A DNA stretch of 64,000 nt from Podarcis vaucheri (Eukaryota): assembly GCA_965113315.1 (NCBI GenBank), contig OZ220370.1; one strand, given 5' to 3'. Below are positions 24,603 to 61,516 of this stretch, in pieces. The notes under the pieces are model-generated. The model worked only from the letters and a program-made list of their open reading frames with translations, made no database searches and had not been told where the DNA came from. The translations under genes were made by a program, and so were the position numbers. Position 1 is the first letter of the stretch. Each line of letters begins with the position of its first letter.

Positions 24603-27600
24603 ACTGGGTTCAGCACAGATCAAGACTAGCCAGCTTCCAGGCCTATTATTCTCCTTGCTGGGATGGATGTGGCATCCAGCCAGGTGAGAAGTGGCGAGAA
24701 AATGCCTATCCCACCACCTAAAAGTATGGCAACACATCTTTGCTTAGCTAACCCTTTATGATGCTGATGATAGTGACCAATGCCATTAGCTTAACAAAGA
24801 AACGGATTTGGCCAGTTCACCAGGTATTCTCTTGCAGGTTCTAACTTCACAGACACAGAATCACAGGCATGGGAGGGACCCATGGAGCTACCTGTAATTC
24901 AGACTGATCCCCATCCCACCCCCATAACAAGATTTGTGCAGCTGCTCTGGTTTCAGTGATGGCAGCATCACATACCTCTTTGAGACTCCAGTCAAATGAC
25001 TTTGATTAAACTAGAGTTGTGTGTGTGCATGTCTCTCTGAATTCAGTAAGGTTTCCTTCCTGATACATCTGTTCAGCATTGCAGAGTAAATAATTTCTAG
25101 GTGCTATTGGAGAAAATGGTAAGAAGAGAATACAGTATTTAACTGTGTATGCAAGAACTTCTGGCTGGCCGATAATTTCCTAATGGGAAATGACAGCTTA
25201 AATAGTTTATGAAAACAGCATTCCTCTAAAAGTTGCAGGCAGTGATTTGTATATGTAACGTGAAGAACAGAGGACAGTATTTTAAAGGAACGTTTCACAG
25301 GCTTCTTAGAACTATGAGAGCTATTTATTTAAAATTGCTTCAATTTTTTCTTGAAGAAGGAAACAGTTTGGAGATCAAAGTGAGCAGTACTGTTATTTCT
25401 GTCACTAAAATTGCAGATTAGGGTCTTTGTCAGTGTTGCTCTTTGGGTGGTCATGTGTCCTATTTTAGAGAGGACAGCCCTCTATATCAAGAGGGCTTGA
25501 AGGACTCATCTATTTGAAGTGCTGCCCAGTCCAAGCCCAGCTCAAAGGCTAAGAACCACAAGACTGGAAAAGTTAGCACCTGGACAACAGACTGAGCAGG
25601 CATGTGAACCAACCTGCTCACAGTCTTTTCCCTGCTGTGGTGAGTTGTCATTATTTCTAAATGTGAATCTATACATATCAAGGAGCACACTTATGCAAAT
25701 ATACATCCTCCTTTTTGCTGGTGCAGTTCCTCTTTGGGTGATATTAAATCTTCATTCTCTAGGGCAGGGTCTGGATCTGGTGGCCTTCTAGATTTTGCTG
25801 GACTACTACAGCTCCCTGAGCAGTGGTTATTTGGGCTGTGGCTAATGTTTCTAACTCTCCTTGGTCTTAAGGGCAAGCTGTCCTGAGATTCCTCCGCAGC
25901 ATCTGAGGAACGTTTGCTTTGAATTAACATCATGATTAATTATTTCTGTCCCATTACCTTTGCGATTTCAAATATTTGTTGGAAGTATGGTTGGTGAGTG
26001 AGGCAGAAAGCTGACATGTTATTTGCTTATCAAACCAAGGTACAAACTCAAGGCTAAATATCAATGGGATCATGAAGGTTCCTATAGACTGTGGATTTAT
26101 GTCCTTCCTCCAAAAATAGCTTTGAGAAAGCACAATGCTTTTCTGAATACCTCACAAGTTGGGGCTGGCAGGAATGTCAGGTTTCTTCCACATGTCTGGA
26201 ATGGGCAAGATGCCAGTACCAGTTTCTACACTAAAGGTTACATTGCAGAATTATGCTCTGCAGTTTAGTCACCCAAGATTAAAGATCTGGGAACTTGCTT
26301 AAAGGGTGGATGAGAGGTTGAAGCAAGCTGAGAAAGAACAAGAGACTCCAGCATAGAAAAGGGACTCTTGGCTGACCAATCCAGGGACAAGTGATCACAT
26401 AAGCAATACTTGAGTTGCTATCTTGGAAGGGCAAAATACACAGGGAAAGAGTCACTGGTGAGAGGGAGAGAGTGTGTGTCTCAGTGTGAAAAGCCCCAGA
26501 AATCTCTATTTAGTAATGTAGATGGGAGGGGTGGGTGGATTTGTGTGTGTGTGTAGAAAAACAACTCTGGGAGAACCCCTTCAATTCTACAGATGGGTAT
26601 CAACCTTTTGCAAGTCTTCAAAATATATCAAGTCAGTTTGATCAAAGACATTGGTGGAATTTTTCAAAAAAGGAGCACGTGTAACTTTAGGGGAGGCTGC
26701 AAACAGAAGGTGCGTGTGGATCTGTTGTGCGAGGGGAGTCAGAGCGGGCTATGATGTGGCCAGAAGTTGTGCCCCACAGAGGTGAGCCTGAATGTGCGCA
26801 GAATATTGCTTTATAAGGATTGGGTTGGCAGGCTTGTCGGTGGGCAATTACAGCTTCCTTCAAACATCTGCAAAGCTGTTGCCTGTACACAGCTTAAGTT
26901 GTGCTAAGGATGCTCATGTCACATTCAGGTCAAAGCTGGAATGGAAGAAGAGGAAGAGAGGGGAGCTTCAGAAAGAGGGCTAGGCTGGATTCCCATGTGG
27001 GTAGGAGGCTTTGTGGGATATTTGAAAGTGTGCAAGTGCAACATAACTAGAAAAAAATGGGCAGAGTGAGAACACGTGAAATGTCTTGTGATTCTTCTAA
27101 AGTTCCCTCTCCCCCCAGGTAGGAATCCCTCTCCCTCCAGGGAGGGATGTCAAGCTAAAGCTTTCTTGTGCCTCCAGTAGTTCACTCAACTGCTGGCCTG
27201 AACAAATGGAGCTCAGTTGCCACTTGCACGCCTGCAGAGACTAAAGGCAGAGTTTTTGCCTGACATAAAAAATGGCAGAGCAAGGCCATCAGGTAATTAT
27301 TCAGCACTGCAATGAATCTGAAGAGATGTTAGGGAAAGTAGATAAATGCATTTAGATAAGGGTAATTAGTAAGATGTTCCAAACTCTGATTCAAAGCAAG
27401 CCTTAAAATTACTTAGGGGTTATCCTTGCACTTCTAGGTCACCAGTTCAAGTGTATGGGCGGGGGGGGGGGGGCAGGAATGAAAAAGTACCAGCTGTCAC
27501 TCTACCATCAGAATACCTTCCATTCCACATGTTTGCAGACATTTGCATACAACAAAAGCACATTGCAAAGACTTCAACAGGCAGTTCCTTGCTGTAAAAT

Positions 27601-29999: not shown

Positions 30000-30172
30000 T
30001 CATAGAATCATAGAATTTTAATTGGAAAGGACCACAAGAGTAATTGGAAAGAAAATTGGAAATTTTAGTTGGAAAGGACCACAAGAGTCATCTAGTCCAA
30101 CCCCCTGCAATGCAGAATCTTTTGCCCAACGTGGGGCTTGAAATTAAGAGTCTCATGCTTTACTGACTGAGC
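30000..30172 (-). mobile_element. tRNA-Lys/CR1 SINE with partly duplicated tail
   Basis: CATAGAATCATAGAAT tail. TTGGAAAGGACCACAAGAGT present twice. GCCCAACGTGGGGC..AAGAGTCTCATGC is the reverse complement of tRNA-Lys. Confidence 0.8.
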
Positions 30173-34174: not shown

Positions 34175-34312
34175 TCATAGAATTGCAGAGCTGGAGGGAC
34201 CATGAGGGTCATCTCGTCCAACCCCCTGCAATGCAGGGATCTTTTGCCCAATGTGGGGCTTCAACCAACGACCCCGAGATTAAGAGGCTAATGCGCTACC
34301 GACTGATTCAGT
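34175..34312 (-). mobile_element. tRNA-Lys/CR1 SINE
   Basis: Reverse complement of the 55765-55902 family: CATAGAAT..GGTCATCTCGTCCAACCCCCTGCAATGCAGG..GCCCAATGTGGGGC..CTACCGACTGA. Confidence 0.8.
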
Positions 34313-34628: not shown

Positions 34629-35546
34629 TTAATGTGTATCTACCTCTTTCATTTCTAACTTATACTTTAATGGCTGCAGATCTTGCACCTCTGTGCCACA
34701 TTTAGGACAAGTAAAATACAAATCAAATAAGTAGTTGCTTTTAATACAATAGTAACAAAAAACATGTGAACAGCCAATGGTGTGAGGCAGAGTGGGCCAC
34801 TCTCCACACAGAGAACATTCCTTGCAACATGTTGCTGAATTATTTTCATTTCTGGTACCCCCTGAAATAGGTAATGACCAAGAAGAGACTTTGAGTTTGA
34901 GCTTTTGCATGTTAATAAGTGGTAAAAGAAAAATAAGAAATTCAGCAAACCCATGCCACAGGAGTTCCCTGTTTGTGTATTCAAATCCAATCTGACGGAC
35001 ACTCTGCGGCTGGCAGAACACTGATCTGATTCGTAAAATACGTTCAGTGAGTGTAGCAAACTTTCCCTTCTGAAGAAAAGCGAGGAAGTTCAGCAATTCA
35101 CAAAGCCTGATGAGCCCAAACACTATGTTAATAAAGTACTTTGTCTTCCGGAATGACTCCAATGGACGATTGCTAAATAAACCGTAACACCTTTCTTCCA
35201 GCCATTTCCCACCGACGGTGCAAATAAGGTACCAATATTTCTGTTGCTTGCTCAACGCCTGGTATTTCTGCATCTGGGATAAGTCGTTCTTGTACTGAAT
35301 GTTCAGAATAGCTTGCCCCACGGTTGCATTCTTGGAGTAGACAGTGAATCTCCACAAAAAAAGCCACAAGGAGGCTTTAAGCTCTGGTTCAAAGCGAGCC
35401 AACAGTCCGGGTTTAAATCCCTGAAAACAGCGAGTAAACTGGGACCAAACCAGCTGTTCCAATGCTTTGTTCAGTTCAAGGGCATCAAGCTGACTTATTC
35501 TAAGCACAGGAGTCACTTTCTTGCCATTGTCATCGCCAGATGCCAT
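34629..35546 (-). CDS. PEX2: Peroxisome biogenesis factor 2 (RING E3 ligase), 305 aa, single coding exon
   Basis: [28 protein letters not shown] (Pex2/Pex12 N-terminal domain) and C3HC4 RING CSLC..CSH..CYYC..CPKC. ATG at 35546. Acceptor TCTTCTTTTATCATAG ends at 35564, 17 nt upstream of the ATG. Confidence 0.97.
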
Positions 35547-36905
35547 TGTCAACACGTGGCTTTCTATGATAAAAGAAGAGATTTAAAGATATATATTATT
35601 ATCATATTAATTTAAATTACAATTTATTAGGCTTTAAAAGAAGTATTTCATGTTGATAACAACTTTGTGAGCTAGATCACCCAAGAATTCAAAGCTGGGA
35701 AAGTGCAACTTACCCCAAGGTCATTCAATGGTAAACAGAGGTTTGAAACCCTGAGTTTGCTACCCTCTCCTATTAGTTCTCCCAGAACAAACACTGTATA
35801 TACATACCCAGCGACAGTAATGCTCACATAATTTTCACCCTATATGGTTGGTATTAATCTTTCAACTGAAGCTTAGAATGTGCAATCAACAATTAAATTT
35901 ATAATTAAATGTGAAGCATGGTGCAATAGGCTGCACACACAAACACCAATTCCTTTTTTATTTTTAAATAGTTTTCTCTCAACCCTCCACACTTCCCCAG
36001 AAAGATAAGTATTTGGTTTTAGGAAAAAGGCAAAAAAAGCTTATTCCAAACTCTCTCTCTCTCTCTTTAATGGCTATTTCATAGGTGCAAGTGTTCCCTA
36101 AGAAGATCACAGCACTTCCTATGGCGGAAGTTATTATCAAATATGAAAATTAAGAGGAACTTCTTAGGGGAGGAATTGTATTGCAGTTAAAATAGTTAAC
36201 ATGCCTTCAATGTGGAAGTTGGGTATATTAAGTAGACATATGGGTAAGATAAAGAAGAAATTGTTGCCACATAAGCACTTGCCATACAAAATGATATGGA
36301 AGAATGTGAATGAAAAGCATGCATGAGAGAAGGTAAGCGTATCAAATTAATATACATAACAGTGTAGCAGAGACTGTGACAAACTTTAGGTACTTAAAAA
36401 GAGAATTTTAGCTTCCTTTAAACTAAAACCAACATTCAGACGAAAGCTGCTTCCTTGCAAGAAAGCATCAGGTGTTGCTTGTGTTTTTTTGCAGGGAGCA
36501 TGCAGAGCACTGGCTATATCTGCTGGATGCCACCATCGGCCAGCATGACCTGTGTACACGCTCCAATATCCCTTGCAGCTAAGCACTGCAAGGGACAATG
36601 GGGTAATGATGGGAATGTCCTTTTGCAAGTGAGATGGAGGAATGCTTGCTGGTGCTGTTGGGAATCCCAGGGTTTTCTGCAACATACAATGAGGACCAGG
36701 GGATCTATGGCAGAAGAACTGCTAGGTTGTATTGTGCTAAACACTGGAATAGATTCTTTGAAATCTGGACAGAGTTCTGCACTCTACTGATGTCATGATG
36801 GTTCAAGCCCGCGTCAGTTGAGGTGGTGTATTTATTTTTCATCTGGTGATGGACAGCTGGTGACCTTGCAATACCTTGGTCTCAGGCTTTCAGCACTGTG
36901 TAGAG

Positions 36906-40027: not shown

Positions 40028-42057
40028 TATACACAATGTTGGCTTTAGGTGCGATCCCTAAAATATAAGCCCCACCTATGTTGCAGGCCTACCGTACTGA
40101 ATTCTGTTCAAAATGCTTCTAGAAAGGGGGTTGTCTATGTTCCAGGCATCCTCCCAGACAAGATCAGTCACGATAGACAAATTTTGCTTAAAATCAGTTG
40201 GTCAACCATCACTAGACCTTTTAACAAGCTGAAGAGTTTTAGTGGCCTCAAAAAAACCCCACAACACTTATGTAATTGTATTTTTTTTTAACTGTCTTGG
40301 AAGCTTTTTGGATGAAAAGTGGCATAAACATGCTTTGAATAAGATAAACAAATTGGCTGGCACTCCAAAGAACGGAGCGTAAGACTTGGAACCTCCCCCC
40401 AAATCTGCCCTGTAATACATTCCTTTGCAGGAATGTACATTCCTGGGTGAAGCAAGTTTAGAAACTCATTGTCCTAGAACATCTCAGGGCTTAAAGAGGA
40501 GATAGCGAAAAGTTAGATACAGTCAGTATATCTCCTCCACTGCCATGGGCTTGAGGCTAAGATAATAGAGGCTTGCTTAAGGTCAGCTAGTTCCAGAGAG
40601 TTTGTGGCAGAGATGAGATTTGAATCAGCAACTTCCTGACCCACAACTCACACTCTTACAAACAGCACCACACCAATTTTAATTATATTATGCCCTATGA
40701 AGCTGAGAGATATTCTATGAAAGTACAACGCCTCTAGAAACTCCTTTCCACCATCTTAGTCAAATCACTGATAACTATAAGGCTCCAAATGGAAACCTTT
40801 AAGAATATTATCAATAGCAATGCTCTGTGAAGAGTGTGATCAAGCAAAGCAAAAAAGAATTCTTGAGGGGGGAGAAATGTTGCCAATTATCAGTATATAT
40901 ACTTTAAAATAATATTTTAAAGATGACGTGGTCCAGGTTTTAAATGTATTTGAGATGTTTCTGACCAGCTTTTCCTTGTAATGCCACACTGCTTTCCTTT
41001 CCAAAAGTAAACCGCATGCCATGTTTTTATATTTGTCCAACAGCTCTTTTAAATACAGGTAATGTAATAAATTGCTCATTTTTATTTAACTAAATTCAGG
41101 AATCCCTCTTGCAAAACATGCACTGTAAGAAAACAATTTGCTGTATATCACCAATAAAATAGGTATTTCTCCTGATATACTTTAGCATTGCTTACTGAGT
41201 ATTGTACAAATTATGAATGAATATATTTTATTTAGAAATGCATTATTGACAGAAATCTATCAATAGTAAAGTGGGTATTGTCAAGGGCCTGTCAATATTA
41301 ATGTAATTATGATTAAGGGGATAACATGGATTTTAGCTTTAATACCAAATAACATCTCCTACATTGCTGCTATCAATATAAGCATTATTATTGACCTGTT
41401 CTGAGGCTCAGAACTAGATGTATTACCATTAGGCATATTTGTCAATGCATTCTGCCTACAAAAATTCTACATTTAAATTTACAGGCCTGTAAACTTTGGC
41501 AGCAGAAATGTATGAGTTCAAGTAATCTCTAGGGTGTCATTCCCCCCTTCGCCCACTATTCTACTGTAATAAACTAATTTATGCCAATCCAATGTCACTG
41601 CCATCTCACTCCCACTCTATCTCATTTTTTAAGCATAATTAGCAGAAAACAAACAGCATTTTCATAATGGAAGGTCACACACATTCTGTTACTTAATATA
41701 TGCTGGCCTTGCATATCTTCAGGATCCAAAGCTTAGGCAGAAAAGGAAACTAATGGGCTAAAACTCCTATTGTAAGAAGTTTGACTACTGAAATCCCTTA
41801 ATTGTGTTGGCTGTGAATGCAGCAGCTTATTAGTGAACCTCTCAGTAAGTAATATTCCAATTGATTCAAACGTCTTATTATCCAAGTGCCTTAGTTCCCA
41901 AGGCCATTTACATCAGTGAGGCATGCTGATAATCTGTTAGGCACTCATCACAGTGTAAAATGCATCTCCAGCTGCCAATCAATACCACATCTCTTGTGGG
42001 CTACATTGTCTTGCTCAAACATTTTGTGGGGTCTGGGTACAGTGCTTGGAGGGGTAA

Positions 42058-42250: not shown

Positions 42251-42744
42251 AGGAGCACAGTTACACAGGGACAGAGAACCTCTGGCCCTCCAAATGCTGG
42301 AAGAGTTCAGCCAAGATGGCTACGACTCAGAAATCGGAGTCTACCAACTCAGGAGGTCCACAGGTTTCACATCCCTGGTTTCCATCATGACCTATTCCTG
42401 TGTCACCTCTGCTGGCATTAGCTGAAGACTTCATTTTGAAAGCTTTTTTTTAAAAAAACAGGTTATCATAAATTTAGTATATAGAGCGTAACTCTAAAAC
42501 ATTTCCAAGCAGGACCCACCTCTGTAATGAACATTGCTACTGTTTCTGATGACAGAAAGGCAAACAAGACTTAAAAAGAAAGAGGGAGAGGAAATCTGAA
42601 GTGTCGATTTTCCAGCAGAAATGCATTTTGTGGAATAAGTTGTAAAATGTATGAATTGTTACAGGTGATGAAATTGAACTAAATCATGTCACCAAACTAG
42701 AACAAAAGCAGGCACAGAAAATCACTTGCACTGATGGTTTTCAT

Positions 42745-45623
42745 CAGTGCTTTTTTCATTTCTTGTTTTGGAGAAAAAACGATGCCGGTACTCACCATGA
42801 AGTTGTTAGAGTAAGTGCCACACTTTTGATACATCCTCCGATGTACCTTCATCTTCTCTACATCGCTTCCTGCTTTTTGTATCAACTGCATTATGATGTC
42901 CTTGTAGCAGCCATGATTCAACATATTTGGTAGGACTGAATTGAGTAAGAGGTGGTCCTACCATCCTGATGAACATCAGAGAAGAAACTGTCCGAATAAC
43001 CAGAGATGATCTTGATGAAGTTACTGTAAGATTCATCTGAGATAATCCTCTTTCACATTCAGTCGAAGATATTGCAATTGTGCTTAAAGCGTGCATTAGA
43101 GGAAGTAATTTGTCCGGGACTTCATTTTCTTCAAGATATTCATGAAAGCCAAGAATTGTTTCATTTTCATTTAAGCAAAACTTTTGTGCTAGTTTTCTAA
43201 TTTCAGTTTCACCAAAGGTTAATTGCTTTCCAGGATTTTCTGGCCAATATTTGGAATCTAAGACCTTGGCACATTCAGGCAAATCAGCATCATCTCCTTC
43301 AAGTATACACTTTCTAACAGTTTCTTTCAGACTTTCATAGAAAGCAGATGAACTTATTGTAGGGGTAAGTTTTTCATTTTTGTGGAGCTCACTCCCTTTG
43401 AACTTCATAGTCTTCTGACTCTCAAGAGCAACATTATAGTATGGACCAGGATTTTCAATTCGTTCTTCAAAAAGTTGAACTGTGTTCCTTATCTTCCTGT
43501 CTGCTGTAAACAAATCAATATTTTGCTCTTGTAAATCCAAGTTTAGTTCACTGAGAACTTGGAGAGCATCACACATAAGACCCAAATCGAGAACAAATTC
43601 ACATGATGTTATTGTCCGTAAAAGACCCTCATAAAGACAGCGATCTGTTTTGCTTCTTCTCCTGTCTTCTTTTGCCTCCTGAAAGTGATAAACCAGTGCT
43701 TCATAATCTTGCCAAACTGCGAAAACTGTGCAAAAGCTAGAAGCAACCCAGCGGGTGCTTAAAATCCTTCCAATTTTCAGAAGCTGAAGTTCTAGAGTTG
43801 CTGCACATTCCTCCAATTCCCTAGCATTCTCGGGTGAAGCGTGGTAAGTCACATAAAGTTTGTCCATAAAATTCTTAAAGTGATTAACTCCAACCACTTT
43901 GTTCACTGTGTCACTGACAGACAATTCCAGACGATGGTTAGCACAACGCCAGAACATAACACTCGGAAATTTTTCTTTTATTAACCTTTTTACACCACCA
44001 CGTGCGCCAAACAACACTGCACCACCATCACAAGTGACAGACAATAAATACTCCTTTAAATAATCTTCTGAGATTCCTAGGGACTCAAGATGACTGATTA
44101 ATGAGCTTAAAATTCCTCTTGCTGTTGTATCTTGTAACTCAATCAAATCTAAGAAAAGACTTACTGGAGCCGAATGTTTGGGAAGAACTACGCGAATACT
44201 AACAATCAAAGTTATTCTGTTATTCACTGTTGTTGATTCATCAATAATTAAGGACATTTTGTTCTTAGAGTTCACTATGTTGCTTATTAATGTTTTTCTC
44301 ATTTCATCTGCAATATGGTTTAAAATATTAATGCAGGCATTTGTAGAGTGAAAGGTATATCCCATGTCTAGGCCATTAAGTTCCTGTAAATTTATTTCAT
44401 CCTCAAAGTTGTTAAATGCTTGATTTTTCTTTGCAACTTTGTAAGCAGTTCGAAACACTTTTGTTGTGTTTAAGATGACTTTATCTAACTTTTCACTTTT
44501 AGACTCAGATTTTATCCTTTCAGCTGCTTTGTGAGCGCCACTTTCCTTGTGTTCGAAAATCTTTTTTCTTAAAGACATTAACTGTTGTTTTCGAGACTCT
44601 CCAAAATGACTAATTTTGCAATTGGCCCACTCTACTGAAATTTTCACTCCCATCCGTTTTTCGACAGGAAGACTTCCGATATCTCGGCACACTTTGCAGC
44701 CCAACCTTTTATTGTTGACAAAGAGCCACTCATTTCTCTGACAGAAGTCATTTTTCTGCAATAGTGTCCAACATTCGGGCCAATCTTTGCCTGAACTTCC
44801 ATCCTCTTGACCACATGTATCTTCAGTGTTAGTTTTGCGATGTTTGAAAGGATCAGAAGTTGATTCAACAATTTCTGCTGCTTCTTCAGCCTTCCTTTTT
44901 TGACTTAGTGGAACAAAGTAACTACTTAAGGTACTCATTATGAAAAATGATTGCACTGATTTAACTTGGATCACATGTACAACTGCCTCATCATGCCTTC
45001 TGCAAAGCGGCTATACTGAGCATAGGTCTGAAAAAGAAAGAGAGGCTGGCGTTAGAAGAATTCCAGAAGCAGAACTTGGAAAGACAATGGAGGGGTCCCA
45101 CAAAGAGGGCTTGTTTTGGCGCTGGCCATGGCACCAACTTCCCCGGCCACACTGCAGGAATTGGACTAGATGACCCTTAGGGTCCCTTAAAGCCAGATGG
45201 CCTCCCTCCCTCCCATTCTCATATTACCTGGGACTTTTGCCGCACTGGCTCCGGTGACTTTGGCGGCTTCGGCAGCTCCTGCGCCCACCCTGCCACGGCC
45301 ATCATGAATGCTGCCAGTGAGGCGACCAAGCCGCACATGGCCAACAGTGGAGTGCAGTGCGTTGCTGGGGATGCACATCACACTGTGCTGCCTGCTCTTG
45401 CGCTCCACAGGGAGCGGGACTCATGCGCTCTGGCAAGCCACGCTGCTGCTGACAGGAAGCAGCAGCTGTTATCGGGCCCAGGAACAGCTCCCGGAGGGCG
45501 GTGGCAGCCGGGCCCTGGAGTGGCACTGCCCATGCCATGTCTCCTCATGCGGCCAAGCATCTCCAGGAAAAATAAAGTGCCGGTATTAAGGATCATTGGG
45601 TACCGCCAGAAAAATAAGCACTG
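42745..45623 (-). mobile_element. Full-length hAT DNA transposon (2879 bp; Tip100/Zaphod-like ends) in the inferred PEX2 5'-UTR intron
   Basis: Left end CAGTGCTTTTTT (42745), right end AAAAATAAGCACTG (45623). Perfect 8-bp TSD GTTTTCAT at 42737-42744 and 45624-45631. TGCCGGTA motif near both ends. Encloses the transposase ORF. Confidence 0.93.
42806..44938 (-). CDS. Intact hAT transposase, 710 aa (KIAA1586/ZNF862-like)
   Basis: First ATG at 44938 (MSTLSSYF). N-terminal CKVC..H..H Zn-finger-like motif, IIDEST (D233), TCDGG (D304), CANH (CxxH), STRW, TECER (E629), and basic NLS-like KRK / KSRKR. No stop or frameshift. Confidence 0.88.
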   Translation of the reverse strand: MSTLSSYFVPLSQKRKAEEAAEIVESTSDPFKHRKTNTEDTCGQEDGSSGKDWPECWTLLQKNDFCQRNEWLFVNNKRLGCKVCRDIGSLPVEKRMGVKISVEWANCKISHFGESRKQQLMSLRKKIFEHKESGAHKAAERIKSESKSEKLDKVILNTTKVFRTAYKVAKKNQAFNNFEDEINLQELNGLDMGYTFHSTNACINILNHIADEMRKTLISNIVNSKNKMSLIIDESTTVNNRITLIVSIRVVLPKHSAPVSLFLDLIELQDTTARGILSSLISHLESLGISEDYLKEYLLSVTCDGGAVLFGARGGVKRLIKEKFPSVMFWRCANHRLELSVSDTVNKVVGVNHFKNFMDKLYVTYHASPENARELEECAATLELQLLKIGRILSTRWVASSFCTVFAVWQDYEALVYHFQEAKEDRRRSKTDRCLYEGLLRTITSCEFVLDLGLMCDALQVLSELNLDLQEQNIDLFTADRKIRNTVQLFEERIENPGPYYNVALESQKTMKFKGSELHKNEKLTPTISSSAFYESLKETVRKCILEGDDADLPECAKVLDSKYWPENPGKQLTFGETEIRKLAQKFCLNENETILGFHEYLEENEVPDKLLPLMHALSTIAISSTECERGLSQMNLTVTSSRSSLVIRTVSSLMFIRMVGPPLTQFSPTKYVESWLLQGHHNAVDTKSRKRCREDEGTSEDVSKVWHLL

Positions 45624-47108
45624 GTTTTCATCCAAGACCCAGTTTCTGGCTATAAGACCCTTTACCAACCTAGTGCTCCCCATATGTTGTTGGACTATAA
45701 CTCTCACAATGTGCTGGCTGCAGCTGATGAGAGTTATAGTCCTACAACATCTGGAGCCTACCAGGTTGGCCTTGACCTTGAACATGGCCTGAAGGTATAC
45801 AACGCAACACCCCTGCAGAAGCAGCAGGTTAAATTCTGGTCAGCGGCTGGACATCAGATTACCTGGGAACCCTGTGTGCTGCAAGTTCCATCATGGAAGA
45901 GAGATGTCAATGTAATAAAGATAGACTATTTATCAACATGATAATTTCTTAGAGTAATTCCTACTGTGCGTGATATTAAAAGATTTCTCAAAATCATTTG
46001 TATTGAGTCCATGCCAAGGAGCCTGAGGAGTATTGAGGAATACAGTTGCATGAGAATTCAGCTGCCAAGTAAGAAGACTTCTATCAAAGCTACAGTGTGC
46101 AAGACAAACTCATTGTTCTTTGTTTAAAAGGGACCACATTGGCTGTCTGTAGGCTGCCTCCACTCTACGGGTTTCCAACCCAAACCACAATAGAGAATCT
46201 CCTTAGAGATGCATACTGTACAATGTATTTTTCTATCTTCAGTCTCATCAAAGATAGGTACGTTACCTCAACAAAAGCCTCACTAGAAGCCCAGAGTATA
46301 TTATCTCTTAATCACTGTAAAATTAGTTTGCCATTACTATGCCATTAGCTTAAATAACCTTAGAAAAGATTAATTTCATATTACATTTTAAATTTCTATA
46401 TTCTTCAATTAAGTGCCTACTATCGTTTGAAAGAATAATAGAGACTTAGGTTCTCTAACCATTCTGCATAGCTAATAATACATAACATTTATATAACTTT
46501 CCATGTTTGAATCCCTGAAAATGTTAACTGATTATTTTCATGGTATTCCTGTGAGGCATTGAAGAATTATCTCTATTTTACATGTGGAAAAGAGGACTTC
46601 AGAACATATTGCATCAAAATTTGGGGAAAAGACTAGAAGGAGAAATCACATGATTTCCATGACTATATTCATTTTCTTAAGTCACATAATCTTTTACTTA
46701 GAATTTTAGTCATTTAATTTACGGTTCTTTACTGGATATTGTAAAAAGGATAAATAACTATGGGAAATAGAAGGGAAATATCTAGGTTTGTGAATTTTAG
46801 CTACCTTGATAAAGAGGACTGGACTGATAATACCCCTTTTAATTTTTCATGAAAATGCATTATGTTGCCTGGAGATAATCAACTTTCTGTACCATGCAAG
46901 AAGTATCTTACTATGCTAGACATCATTGATGGCTATGTCCACAATAATGCTTAGGCCGGAAATGGTAGTTTGGCAAAAATACTGGATTTGTAACACATTT
47001 CATTTCAGAAGCTATTATTGCTGCTACTAGTACTGTTACTATGATTTTGCCCAATGGCAGTAGCATTGATACCTGTAAGACCAACAACTCAAGTAGTAAG
47101 ATCCTGAG

Positions 47109-47332: not shown

Positions 47333-47663
47333 ATCTTGAGTTTTACATAACTTTTATTCTGGCTAAATGTCCTTTCCCGCCTTACCCCACACCATCCTGT
47401 TGCCCCAAGAGGAACTGGTAGCTTTGGTATATCAACTCAAATCCTTTCTACTGGGCACAAACTTACTTAAGGCAAATAATTTTTTTGAAATAGGTAACTG
47501 TAAGACAGTTGGGTGTCTGTTCTGCCTTTTACCAACAATCTTCATCTCTTCAACCTCGCTTCTGTTTAACATCTAGCCGGGTGCACCGCTCTGGGAAACA
47601 TAAAAGGCGGTTCAGTCCTAATAAGGGTATTACATTACTAATAGAGAGATAGTTGATCTAAAC

Positions 47664-48012
47664 CAGGGGTCGGCAAGGTTTACCGGCCATGGGCCAGATC
47701 ACTCCCACGGAGATCATCCTGGCACTGGACTGGCATAGCGCGACGCCGGATAGCGCATCTGCGCATGTCCGCGGCGCCAGAAATTGCTTCTGCGCAAGCC
47801 TAGACGCCAAAAATCCCGCCTGCGCAGAAGCGATTTTCGGCATCTGGACATGTGCAGACATGATTTCCAGTATCTGCACCTGCGCAGATGCAATTTCTGG
47901 CACCACTTGGTTAGTCCCCGTGCCGTGCTGCTTTAGCGCAGCATGCGGGGAACTCACCGAGTGGGTGGCTTGGTTCAGGGGTGGTTCGTGGGCTGCACGT
48001 TGCTGACCCCTG
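47664..48012. mobile_element. hAT (Charlie-like) MITE with internal TGCGCA repeats
   Basis: CAGGGGTCGGCAAGGT ... ACGTTGCTGACCCCTG. Perfect TSD ATCTAAAC at 47656-47663 and 48013-48020. Confidence 0.9.
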
Positions 48013-48054
48013 ATCTAAACAGAAATGGAAAACTCTTTCCTGTACACACACACA

Positions 48055-53559: not shown

Positions 53560-54300
53560 TAAGGATGCCGCTGAGCTCGCCTTAAGCCCCATTTTGGGAC
53601 CCCCACCCCACCTTGACGCTACGCAACCCCTCTCCCCACCGACTGCCAGCCTCCCCCCTCCCCCATCCATCCCCCTCCTCCGTCACGGACTGACCTCTCT
53701 TTTCCTGAGGGAGGGGCTACTCCGCGAGACCCCGCCGCCCCGTTTCCCGCGCCGACCGAGGGGAAGAGACCATGCAGTTCGGTGACCCGGATTTCACTTC
53801 GGGCGTCGAGTTCTCCTTCGGGGATTCCTAGAGCAGCCGAGCTTGCTTCCACCACGCCGCGCGCCTTTCCGCTCTCCTCATCTCTATGGTGCTCCTCCGT
53901 CCTTTGCTTTCCTCAGCGTTGTAGGTAACTGCCGACAAAGCGCAGAGCGTCTCCCCAGCTGAAGCAGGAAATACTAATGAGATGCCCTTTACGTCTTTCC
54001 TAGAGCGGCTCCCCTCTCCCCCCCCCCGCAGCTTCGCGGTTCTTGTTCTCTGCTTTTGCCCATAGAGATAGTAAAAACAAAAATAAATACAAGAGTGGCA
54101 CGTCGTCCAAATCTCTGGCTTGAAAAGACCTTTTGATTTCTCCCTAAGAGCAAAGTGAGAGCTCTCCGTAGAAAAGAACACAGGAAAGAAACACAGGATT
54201 TTGTAATACGGGTGCGATTGGGCAGTAGGCACACCTCGCCCCCGCCCTCAAAGTAATATATAGGAAATGCTGAACTCCCAGGCTCCAAGTAACGTCTTTT
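53560..54300 (-). promoter_or_regulatory. PEX2: CpG-rich probable PEX2 promoter and non-coding exon 1
   Basis: Clearest non-TE CpG-dense segment upstream of PEX2. GC box near 54240, CCAAT (minus) near 54217, ETS-like CCGAAGTG near 53795. Candidate donor GAG|GTCAGT with the exon ending at 53695. Link to PEX2 is inferred. Confidence 0.7.
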
Positions 54301-55764: not shown

Positions 55765-55902
55765 TAGCTGAGTTGGTAGAGCATGAGACTCTTGATCTCA
55801 GGGTTGTGGGTTTGAGTCCCATGTTGGGCAAAAGATTCCTGCATTGCAGGGAGTTGGACTAGATGACCCTCATGGTTCCTTCCAACTCTACAATTCTATG
55901 AA
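55765..55902 (+). mobile_element. tRNA-Lys(CTT)-derived SINE with CR1 3' tail (best copy)
   Basis: TAGCTGAGTTGGTAGAGCATGAGACTCTTGATCTCAGGGTTGTGGGTTTGAGTCCCATGTTGGGC head, then AAAAGATTCCTGCATTGCAGGGAGTTGGACTAGATGACCC..ATTCTATG. Confidence 0.85.
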
Positions 55903-61230: not shown

Positions 61231-61516
61231 AGAAGAAGAAGAAGAAGAAGAAGAAGAAGAAGAAGAAGAAGCGGAGGAGGAGTTTGGATTTGATATCCCG
61301 CTTTATCACTACCCGAAGGAGTCTCAAAGCGGCTAACAATCTCCTTTCCCTTCCTCCCCCACAACAAACACTCTGTGAGGTGAGTGGGGCTGAGAGACTT
61401 CAAAAAAGCGTGACTGGCCCAAGGTCACCCAGCAGCTGCATGTGGAGGAGCGGAGACGCGAACCCGGTTCACCAGATTACGAGTCCACTGCTCTTAACCA
61501 CTACACCACCCTGGCT
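61231..61516 (-). mobile_element. CORE-type tRNA SINE (Squam3-like) with long (CTT)n tail
   Basis: Long (AGA)n run at 61231-61271 followed by a body near-identical to 21206-21447. Confidence 0.88.

Follow-up and report, generated by a model that had tools for sequence, protein, structure and literature searches.

Introduction

A transposon copy that keeps both its ends and an open transposase frame may be a mobile element, a fossil or a gene that is passing into the service of its host, and the locus described here raises the question of which. The locus is an element of the hAT superfamily in a stretch of 64,000 nucleotides from the lizard Podarcis vaucheri (contig OZ220370.1 of assembly GCA_965113315.1), the whole of which we call the window. 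A preliminary description, made from the sequence alone, presented the element as a catalytically intact transposon that might be autonomous or recently active. Our analysis makes a host-captured gene in the making more likely than an active transposon, and the case for a candidate active amniote transposon is weak. On balance we favour a fixed, PEX2-driven alternative last exon at an early stage of domestication, whose product would be a nuclear, DNA-binding, oligomerising protein and not a mobile element.

Results

A hAT element with both ends

Inspection of the window sequence showed an element of 2,879 bp (42745-45623) flanked by identical 8-mers that form its target-site duplication (TSD); the coordinates of this and other features are collected in Table 1. 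The terminal inverted repeats (TIRs) are 12 bp long, match at 11 of 12 positions, have CAGTG termini and diverge beyond those 12 bp. Just inside the ends lies an 8-bp motif that occurs three times in the 64 kb when both strands are counted, each time no more than 50 bp from an end of the element. In a chance test on the 16,294 pairs of identical 8-mers lying 100-10,000 bp apart in the window, with at least 11 of 12 inverted positions required, about 0.055 configurations of TSD and ends were expected and three were found, all with CAG ends: the hAT element itself and a pair of short elements whose CAG ends differ from its own. A pattern search and a sensitive BLAST search detected no other element or miniature inverted-repeat transposable element (MITE) with the ends of the hAT element within the 64-kb window.

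The hAT superfamily is described as having an 8-bp TSD (PMC3942097), TIRs of 10-25 bp with YARNG termini and a length of 2.5-5 kb (PMC3942097, PMC3014272). The TSD here is of 8 bp, the TIRs are short with YARNG termini and the size lies within that range; the transposase is of the DDE type with a Hermes-like fold, a CxxH motif and a hairpin tryptophan, as set out below. By its TSD, TIRs, size and fold the element is a hAT superfamily transposon copy with both ends, as the preliminary description had reported. A 9-bp reading of the TSD, with a G before both copies, was discarded: it would break the symmetric CAG...CTG ends. Two overlapping open reading frames (ORFs) that cross the element end (45304-45792 on the plus strand and 45378-45785 on the minus strand) are without Pfam match and were judged to have arisen by chance. 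Outside the element, 34 bp beyond the right TSD, stands a MITE-like imperfect palindrome of 105 bp with 42-nt arms that are 83% complementary.

A transposase of the Hermes type

The preliminary description was right about the 2,133-nt frame and about the residues that it named. The 710-aa ORF contains D233, D304 and E629 of the DDE triad, the CxxH motif (C332-A-N-H335), R396-W397 and R643, and it also keeps E234 and R630. An N-terminal CCHH zinc finger is formed by C81, C84, H130 and H136, ligands that are conserved in the family; for this finger the Atlas gives zf-C17orf113 with a score of 0.90, as a lead only. The match of the protein to hATC (PF05699) has an E-value of 0.02 and 15.1 bits, under the Pfam cut-off of 21.4; of the 26 aligned proteins, 21 match PF05699 at E<=0.01, and the window protein is not one of these. 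In the structural comparison described below, this region superposes on Hermes. When a profile built from 55 homologues was run against the Protein Data Bank (PDB), it matched only Hermes (four sequences) and aligned the E629 motif with the C-terminal glutamate motif of that protein. A match from a single-sequence search of the PDB (E 0.71) was dismissed as chance.

The AlphaFold model of the 710-aa protein (predicted local distance difference test score 82) has Hermes as its best Foldseek match (E 2.5e-9). In VIA-align the two superpose with Z 23.5 and a root-mean-square deviation of 3.2 over 391 aligned residues, spanning model residues 167-665, and the next, unrelated fold reaches Z 10. In the model D233 lies within the first core strand and D304 follows directly on strand 298-303, the placement expected for an RNase H-like DDE core. 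The window protein thus has the whole catalytic fold in common with Hermes of Musca domestica (PDB 4d1q, 6dww, 8edg), although the two are only 17% identical, belong to different hAT lineages and carry different N-terminal zinc fingers; moreover Hermes is active, whereas the window copy is worn. The CxxH motif and the hairpin tryptophan are described as important in both Hermes and Kat1 (PMC4763223).

A Podarcis muralis protein that bears the name of PEX2

The top match of the transposase is a protein entitled 'peroxisome biogenesis factor 2 isoform X1 [Podarcis muralis]', to which it is identical at 688 of 710 positions (97%) without a gap. This 'PEX2 isoform X1' consists of transposase sequence only, with no PEX2 in it; it is colinear with the bare ORF over 710/710 aa, and no in-frame fused host domain was found among forms of up to 1,243 aa. 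A name of this kind is what annotation pipelines assign to a protein whose transcripts have exons in common with PEX2. Read most simply, it suggests that in P. muralis non-coding exons of PEX2 are spliced to the transposase ORF, which in turn would mean that the insertion site is the same in both lineages.

PEX2 is indeed the neighbour. Its coding exon lies on the same strand as the transposase, 7.2 kb downstream of the transposase stop; the PEX2 protein best matches those of Rhineura (88%) and Tiliqua (87%), with no lacertid among the 24 matches listed at E<=1e-150. On the other side, 8 kb upstream of the element, is a candidate promoter and first non-coding exon (CpG observed/expected ratio 0.65, the highest among 1-kb bins from 28 to 64 kb) with GC-box- and CCAAT-like sites and a donor-like site at 53695, which probably belongs to PEX2. 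Because the PEX2 coding exon is downstream and the candidate promoter upstream on the same strand, the element most likely sits in sense orientation in an intron of the PEX2 5' untranslated region (5'-UTR). Since the 97%-identical P. muralis protein is named a PEX2 isoform and PEX2 flanks the element, the two lineages, which are 22 amino acids apart, most likely split after the insertion.

The element also offers a candidate 3' splice site, 89 nt upstream of the transposase ATG. By a score that is a crude pyrimidine count, it ranks first among the 598 YAG sites between the candidate first exon and the coding exon of PEX2, whose own acceptor ranks sixth. A possible 3' end for a captured exon is provided by two canonical poly(A) hexamers in host DNA, 1.6-1.7 kb beyond the transposase stop; none of the four hexamer variants searched occurs between that stop and the end of the element.

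Relatives of the transposase

Beyond P. muralis, nothing more than 80% identical appeared among the best 120 of 194 and the best 120 of 160 matches; among shorter homologues, the best 120 of 160 matches contained no named lacertid and nothing above 76% identity. At 50-79% identity along almost the entire protein there are relatives in a snail, beetles, frogs, a caecilian, a turtle and lizards; those named include Leptobrachium, Microcaecilia, Biomphalaria, Pelusios, geckos, Tiliqua, Varanus and beetles. A search of representatives put the family at 421 proteins at E<=1e-30. Many of the named relatives are annotated 'E3 SUMO-protein ligase KIAA1586-like', the automated label that the preliminary description had predicted. 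That label stems from the N-terminal tandem SUMO-interacting-motif region of the primate protein, according to PMC8952880. Such a region marks the KIAA1586/ZNF451 SUMO E3 ligases; set beside plain members of the family, the window ORF shows no extension at its N-terminus. In a FastTree tree of 47 rows, built with no named Tip reference, one supported clade unites the window protein with the relatives P0003-P0006. KIAA1586/ZNF862-like proteins are linked to the Tip group of hATs, whose members would cluster with the Tip100 and BuT2 transposases.

Three of 26 aligned relatives are fused to a KRAB domain (P0006, P0016 and P0023, from Leptobrachium, Eublepharis and Heteronotia), one of them also to SCAN and C2H2 fingers, and the family therefore appears to have been captured repeatedly by splicing in tetrapods. 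Nine distant relatives of 808-926 aa (P0059, P0062, P0073, P0092, P0095, P0097, P0101, P0110 and P0113) have an extra PF02338 domain, which we take to be the OTU-like protease.

Wear at conserved sites

Compared with the KIAA1586-like family the window protein is altered at 13 of 168 conserved columns and has lost eight residues. The P. muralis protein departs at 10 of the 168, all of them shared; these columns are each kept in at least 85% of the 53 other rows, a definition that is mildly circular in that sister rows are included. The two nearest undamaged relatives have two and three departures; among the 35 closest other rows, 26 have five or fewer and five, including two KRAB fusions, have at least 12. 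When conservation was defined without the whole P0001-P0006 clade, 10 of 67 changes on the stem struck highly conserved columns; for two sister branches the count was 3 of 95 (P=0.0085, Fisher test). Arginine was replaced by histidine or cysteine in 6 of 67 stem changes and in none of 98 on the other side of the comparison (P=0.004); such replacements mark CpG decay in methylated DNA.

The changes at conserved sites include L196F, H331R, R403C, E461V, R544C, R599H and F632L. Residue 461 is glutamate in all 53 other rows, residue 632 is phenylalanine in 48 of the 53 and in Hermes, and H331R adjoins the CxxH motif. The deletion, in frame and common to both lizard proteins, follows N157 within a predicted linker helix, so that the span from H136 to F162 measures 27 residues as against 35 in 40 of 46 relatives. 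The claim of catalytic integrity in the preliminary description thus holds only for its five named residues. A transposase free of decay at family-conserved sites would be expected of an active autonomous hAT, and this one shows such decay; it appears to have lost constraint for transposition after insertion. The window comes from a gapped draft assembly (eight runs of N, 2,215 bases in total), and a few window-specific substitutions could therefore be consensus errors.

The 5' non-coding region of the element encloses a 39-bp fragment of a host repeat that is dispersed in the window. The fragment matches 55842-55881 at 85% (E 2e-5), and against each of four reference copies it outscored all of 300 shuffles. 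It corresponds to the 3' part of the repeat and resembles three further copies as well; it could have been inserted later or captured earlier. In the longest copy of the repeat the head is tRNA-like (40 bits to Rfam RF00005), and for that reason we call the repeat SINE-like (after short interspersed elements); its 3' part presumably resembles a CR1 tail. The perfect TSD is weak evidence of youth: with 3-5% change per site, the probability that an 8-bp TSD survives unchanged is still 0.44-0.61.

Is the frame under selection?

Set against this wear is a frame with no stop or frameshift. Past residue 52 a single indel is shared against both sister proteins, and it preserves the frame. The measures of selection that follow are protein-level proxies. 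A two-class estimate gives about 39 (13 to 67) stem changes, plus the 22 since the split, as free of transposase constraint, and simulation on the transposase ORF yielded about 0.06 stops per missense change. At the point estimate the neutral expectation is thus 3.7 stops, and the probability of none, P(0), is 0.026 for stops only; with assumed indel rates of 0.05-0.10 per substitution it falls to between 1e-3 and 5e-5. Across the range of assumptions the probability that the ORF survives runs from 0.12 to 1e-6. In addition, 13 of the 22 differences from P. muralis are conservative, where about 35% would be expected (P~0.02). These figures moderately favour selection on the frame.

Other features of the window

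Elsewhere in the window lie two non-autonomous hAT-like elements, each with ends that match as inverted repeats at 11/12 positions and with two identical copies of an 8-bp TSD. The one of 349 bp is a MITE whose ends begin with CAGGGG and are unlike those of the 2,879-bp element; the one of 580 bp represents a second such family. A 301-codon frame rich in proline, glutamine and serine, with no Pfam match above the cut-off, resembles the last exon of ZFHX4; it converges on PEX2, as in the human locus. Three frames of 144-192 codons are without Pfam match, two of which (125-667 and 4153-4584) presumably resemble C-terminal fragments of ORF2 of long interspersed elements. The youngest-looking long repeat pair in the window is 236 bp long with 92.8% identity.

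Table 1. Features of the Podarcis vaucheri window, beginning with the hAT element and its surroundings
Feature	Position	Strand	Remarks
TSD, left copy, GTTTTCAT	42737-42744	.	8 bp
TIR, end downstream of transposase gene	42745-42756	+	12 bp, 11/12 match with other end
Subterminal 8-bp motif	42783-42790	-	
hAT transposase ORF	42806-44938	-	2,133 nt, 710 aa
Candidate 3' splice site	45028-45047	-	polypyrimidine tract and CAG; last intron base 45028; putative use in vivo
Nested host-repeat fragment	45150-45188	+	39 bp, element 5' non-coding region
Subterminal motifs, opposed pair	45578-45585; 45601-45608	-; +	
TIR, end upstream of transposase gene	45612-45623	-	12 bp
TSD, right copy, GTTTTCAT	45624-45631	.	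8 bp, identical to left copy
Imperfect palindrome	45665-45769		105 bp
PEX2 coding exon	34629-35564	-	ATG 35546, 305 aa, Pfam Pex2_Pex12 E 5e-41, acceptor 35564
Poly(A) hexamers, two canonical	41081-41232	-	5' bases 41232 and 41086; candidate 3' end of captured exon, putative use
Candidate PEX2 promoter and first non-coding exon	53690-54300	-	probable assignment to PEX2
Dispersed repeat	55765-55901		related copies 13592-13661, 21576-21644, 30067-30172, 34175-34304
hAT-like MITE, 349 bp	47664-48012		TSD 47656-47663, 48013-48020
hAT-like element, 580 bp	24023-24602		TSD 24015-24022, 24603-24610
Pro/Gln/Ser-rich frame	6758-7660	+	301 codons
Frames of 144-192 codons	125-667; 4153-4584; 5379-5954	+; -; -	
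Repeat pair, 236 bp	21208-21443; 61274-61509		
N runs, eight	7662-11139; 19805-19932		

Discussion

We propose that an old KIAA1586-like hAT inserted in sense orientation into a 5'-UTR intron of PEX2 in an ancestor of the wall lizards and was then fixed there. The PEX2 promoter would transcribe through the element; where the non-coding exon or exons are spliced to the acceptor at 45028, the transcript would encode the transposase-derived protein and end at a poly(A) site about 1.6 kb downstream, and where that acceptor is skipped they would be spliced to the PEX2 coding exon instead. The transposase and PEX2 ORFs would then be alternative last exons under one shared promoter, with no fusion of proteins. 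In the unfused 710-aa product the frame, the zinc finger and the catalytic triad are retained, but transposition is probably no longer efficient; the protein is most likely under weak host selection, for example for binding old copies of its own ends. The preliminary description had named a fossil or a domesticated gene as the outcome that would overturn it, and the PEX2 context and the splice acceptor, both of which it missed, point in that direction, even though its account of the ends and the frame stands.

Several points weigh against this proposal. Domesticated genes usually lose their TIRs, yet the TIRs are kept here. Orthology and splicing are read from a database name and from adjacency. 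The acceptor at 45028 was lost by an initial scan with an AG-exclusion filter and came first in a second scoring that was fixed only afterwards, and four out-of-frame ATGs between it and the start codon might limit translation. The low bound on age raises P(0) to 0.12 for stops only, or 0.003 with indels, and P(0) since the split alone is 0.03-0.27. Changes at conserved columns since the split number 3 of 22, which a neutral expectation fits (P~0.2), and 11 of 12 polarisable differences fall on the branch of the window copy (branch lengths 0.029 versus 0.007); on these two grounds the window copy may now be drifting. Lastly, the copy was ascertained for its intactness, and one lucky survivor among many copies is plausible.

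Such a survivor, a neutral fossil that diverts some PEX2 transcripts incidentally, through an acceptor of its own, and whose protein is without function, is the alternative that we take most seriously, as a possible though doubtful one. It draws on the P(0) since the split alone, on the ascertainment of the copy for its intactness, on the CpG-decay signature and on the near-neutral rate at which changes on the window branch strike conserved columns (3-4 of 11 polarised). It has more difficulty with the whole history of the frame, for which P(0) at the point estimate is about 0.03 for stops only and at most 1e-3 with indels, and with an open frame of identical length in two lineages, an excess of conservative differences, and catalytic and zinc-finger residues that have all been spared.

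Those same spared residues, D233, E234, D304, C332, H335, W397, E629, R630, R643 and the four zinc ligands, together with the structural alignment to Hermes and the presence of TIRs and subterminal motifs, could be taken to mean that the fixed element is still competent and that a PEX2-driven, working transposase moves MITEs in trans or makes DNA cuts that serve the host; the domesticated hAT Kat1 is described as still cutting DNA (PMC4763223). We think this unlikely in view of E461V, F632L, H331R beside the CxxH motif, the eight residues gone from the linker helix and the lack of a matching short element within 64 kb. That the element is instead a recent insertion of a currently active family, possibly acquired horizontally, with the P. 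muralis protein as a paralogous copy, is very improbable: a perfect TSD, an open frame, a patchy spread of the family (snail, beetle, frog, caecilian, turtle and lizards, at 50-68% identity), a 13-member P. muralis protein cluster that could include further copies and the existence of very young hATs in Anolis (PMC3014272) would suit it, but the PEX2 name of the P. muralis protein fits the exact neighbourhood of the element, ten conserved-column departures and the deletion are common to both proteins, no further match above 80% was found among the best 120 of 194 and best 120 of 160, and a host repeat is nested in the element. The name and the PEX2 flank, the losses at conserved sites and at arginines and the nested repeat likewise speak against the autonomous or recently active element of the preliminary description.

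Captured as an alternative last exon, the element would have partial parallels among known genes. ZBED6, in intron 1 of ZC3H11A, is described as a domesticated hAT-derived single-exon ORF that uses the promoter of its host gene and is unfused (PMC2780926). The likeness lies in an unfused hAT ORF inside a host gene, with expression from the host promoter presumed in our case. ZBED6 differs in being expressed by intron retention, pan-placental and immobile, whereas the window element would use an alternative acceptor and has kept its ends and TSD, and host selection on it is suggested by the protein-level proxies given above. Cosby et al. describe 9 cases, in 8 of which capture had occurred at an acceptor immediately before the transposase ORF (10.1101/2020.05.07.082677). 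KRABINER, SETMAR and CSB-PGBD3 resemble the present case in that capture proceeds through an acceptor upstream of the transposase ORF and creates an alternative isoform of the host gene (10.1101/2020.05.07.082677), but they are mariner or piggyBac derivatives with a fused host domain, whereas the window element is a hAT and is unfused. No host coding domain is fused to it because the whole PEX2 coding sequence lies in the skipped downstream exon; it is thus no host-transposase fusion in the sense of Cosby et al., which takes an in-frame host domain. The words 'Podarcis' and 'KIAA1586' are absent from the main text of that paper (10.1101/2020.05.07.082677), the supplement of which may include squamate entries, and we found no description of this locus in the openly accessible literature.

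Young hATs are themselves familiar in lizards. Those of Anolis carolinensis (hAT-HT1-3_AC, SPIN_AC and hobo_AC) are described as 2-3 kb long, with 8-bp TSDs and YARNG termini, and as drivers of MITEs; some of the families diverge from their consensus by 0-1% (PMC3014272). The window copy, set beside them by description only, differs by 3% of its amino acids from its likely orthologue alone. Because young lizard hATs were already known from Anolis, a recently active element, the headline of the preliminary description, would be worth less even if it were true.

Two database labels can be corrected in passing: the P. muralis 'PEX2 isoform X1' contains no PEX2 sequence, and the animal proteins called 'E3 SUMO ligase KIAA1586-like' are mostly hAT transposases. 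For the lizards themselves, the locus appears to represent a young stage of transposase domestication, datable and testable across the sequenced wall lizards, in which TIRs, TSD and catalytic triad remain while a host promoter seems to be in control of expression. A genuine splice to the transposase ORF would also be in competition with the sole coding exon of PEX2, which is a gene for peroxisome import, and could set the dose of PEX2. Were the enzyme, driven by its host, still active, it would be a vertebrate counterpart of yeast Kat1, standing between transposon and gene.

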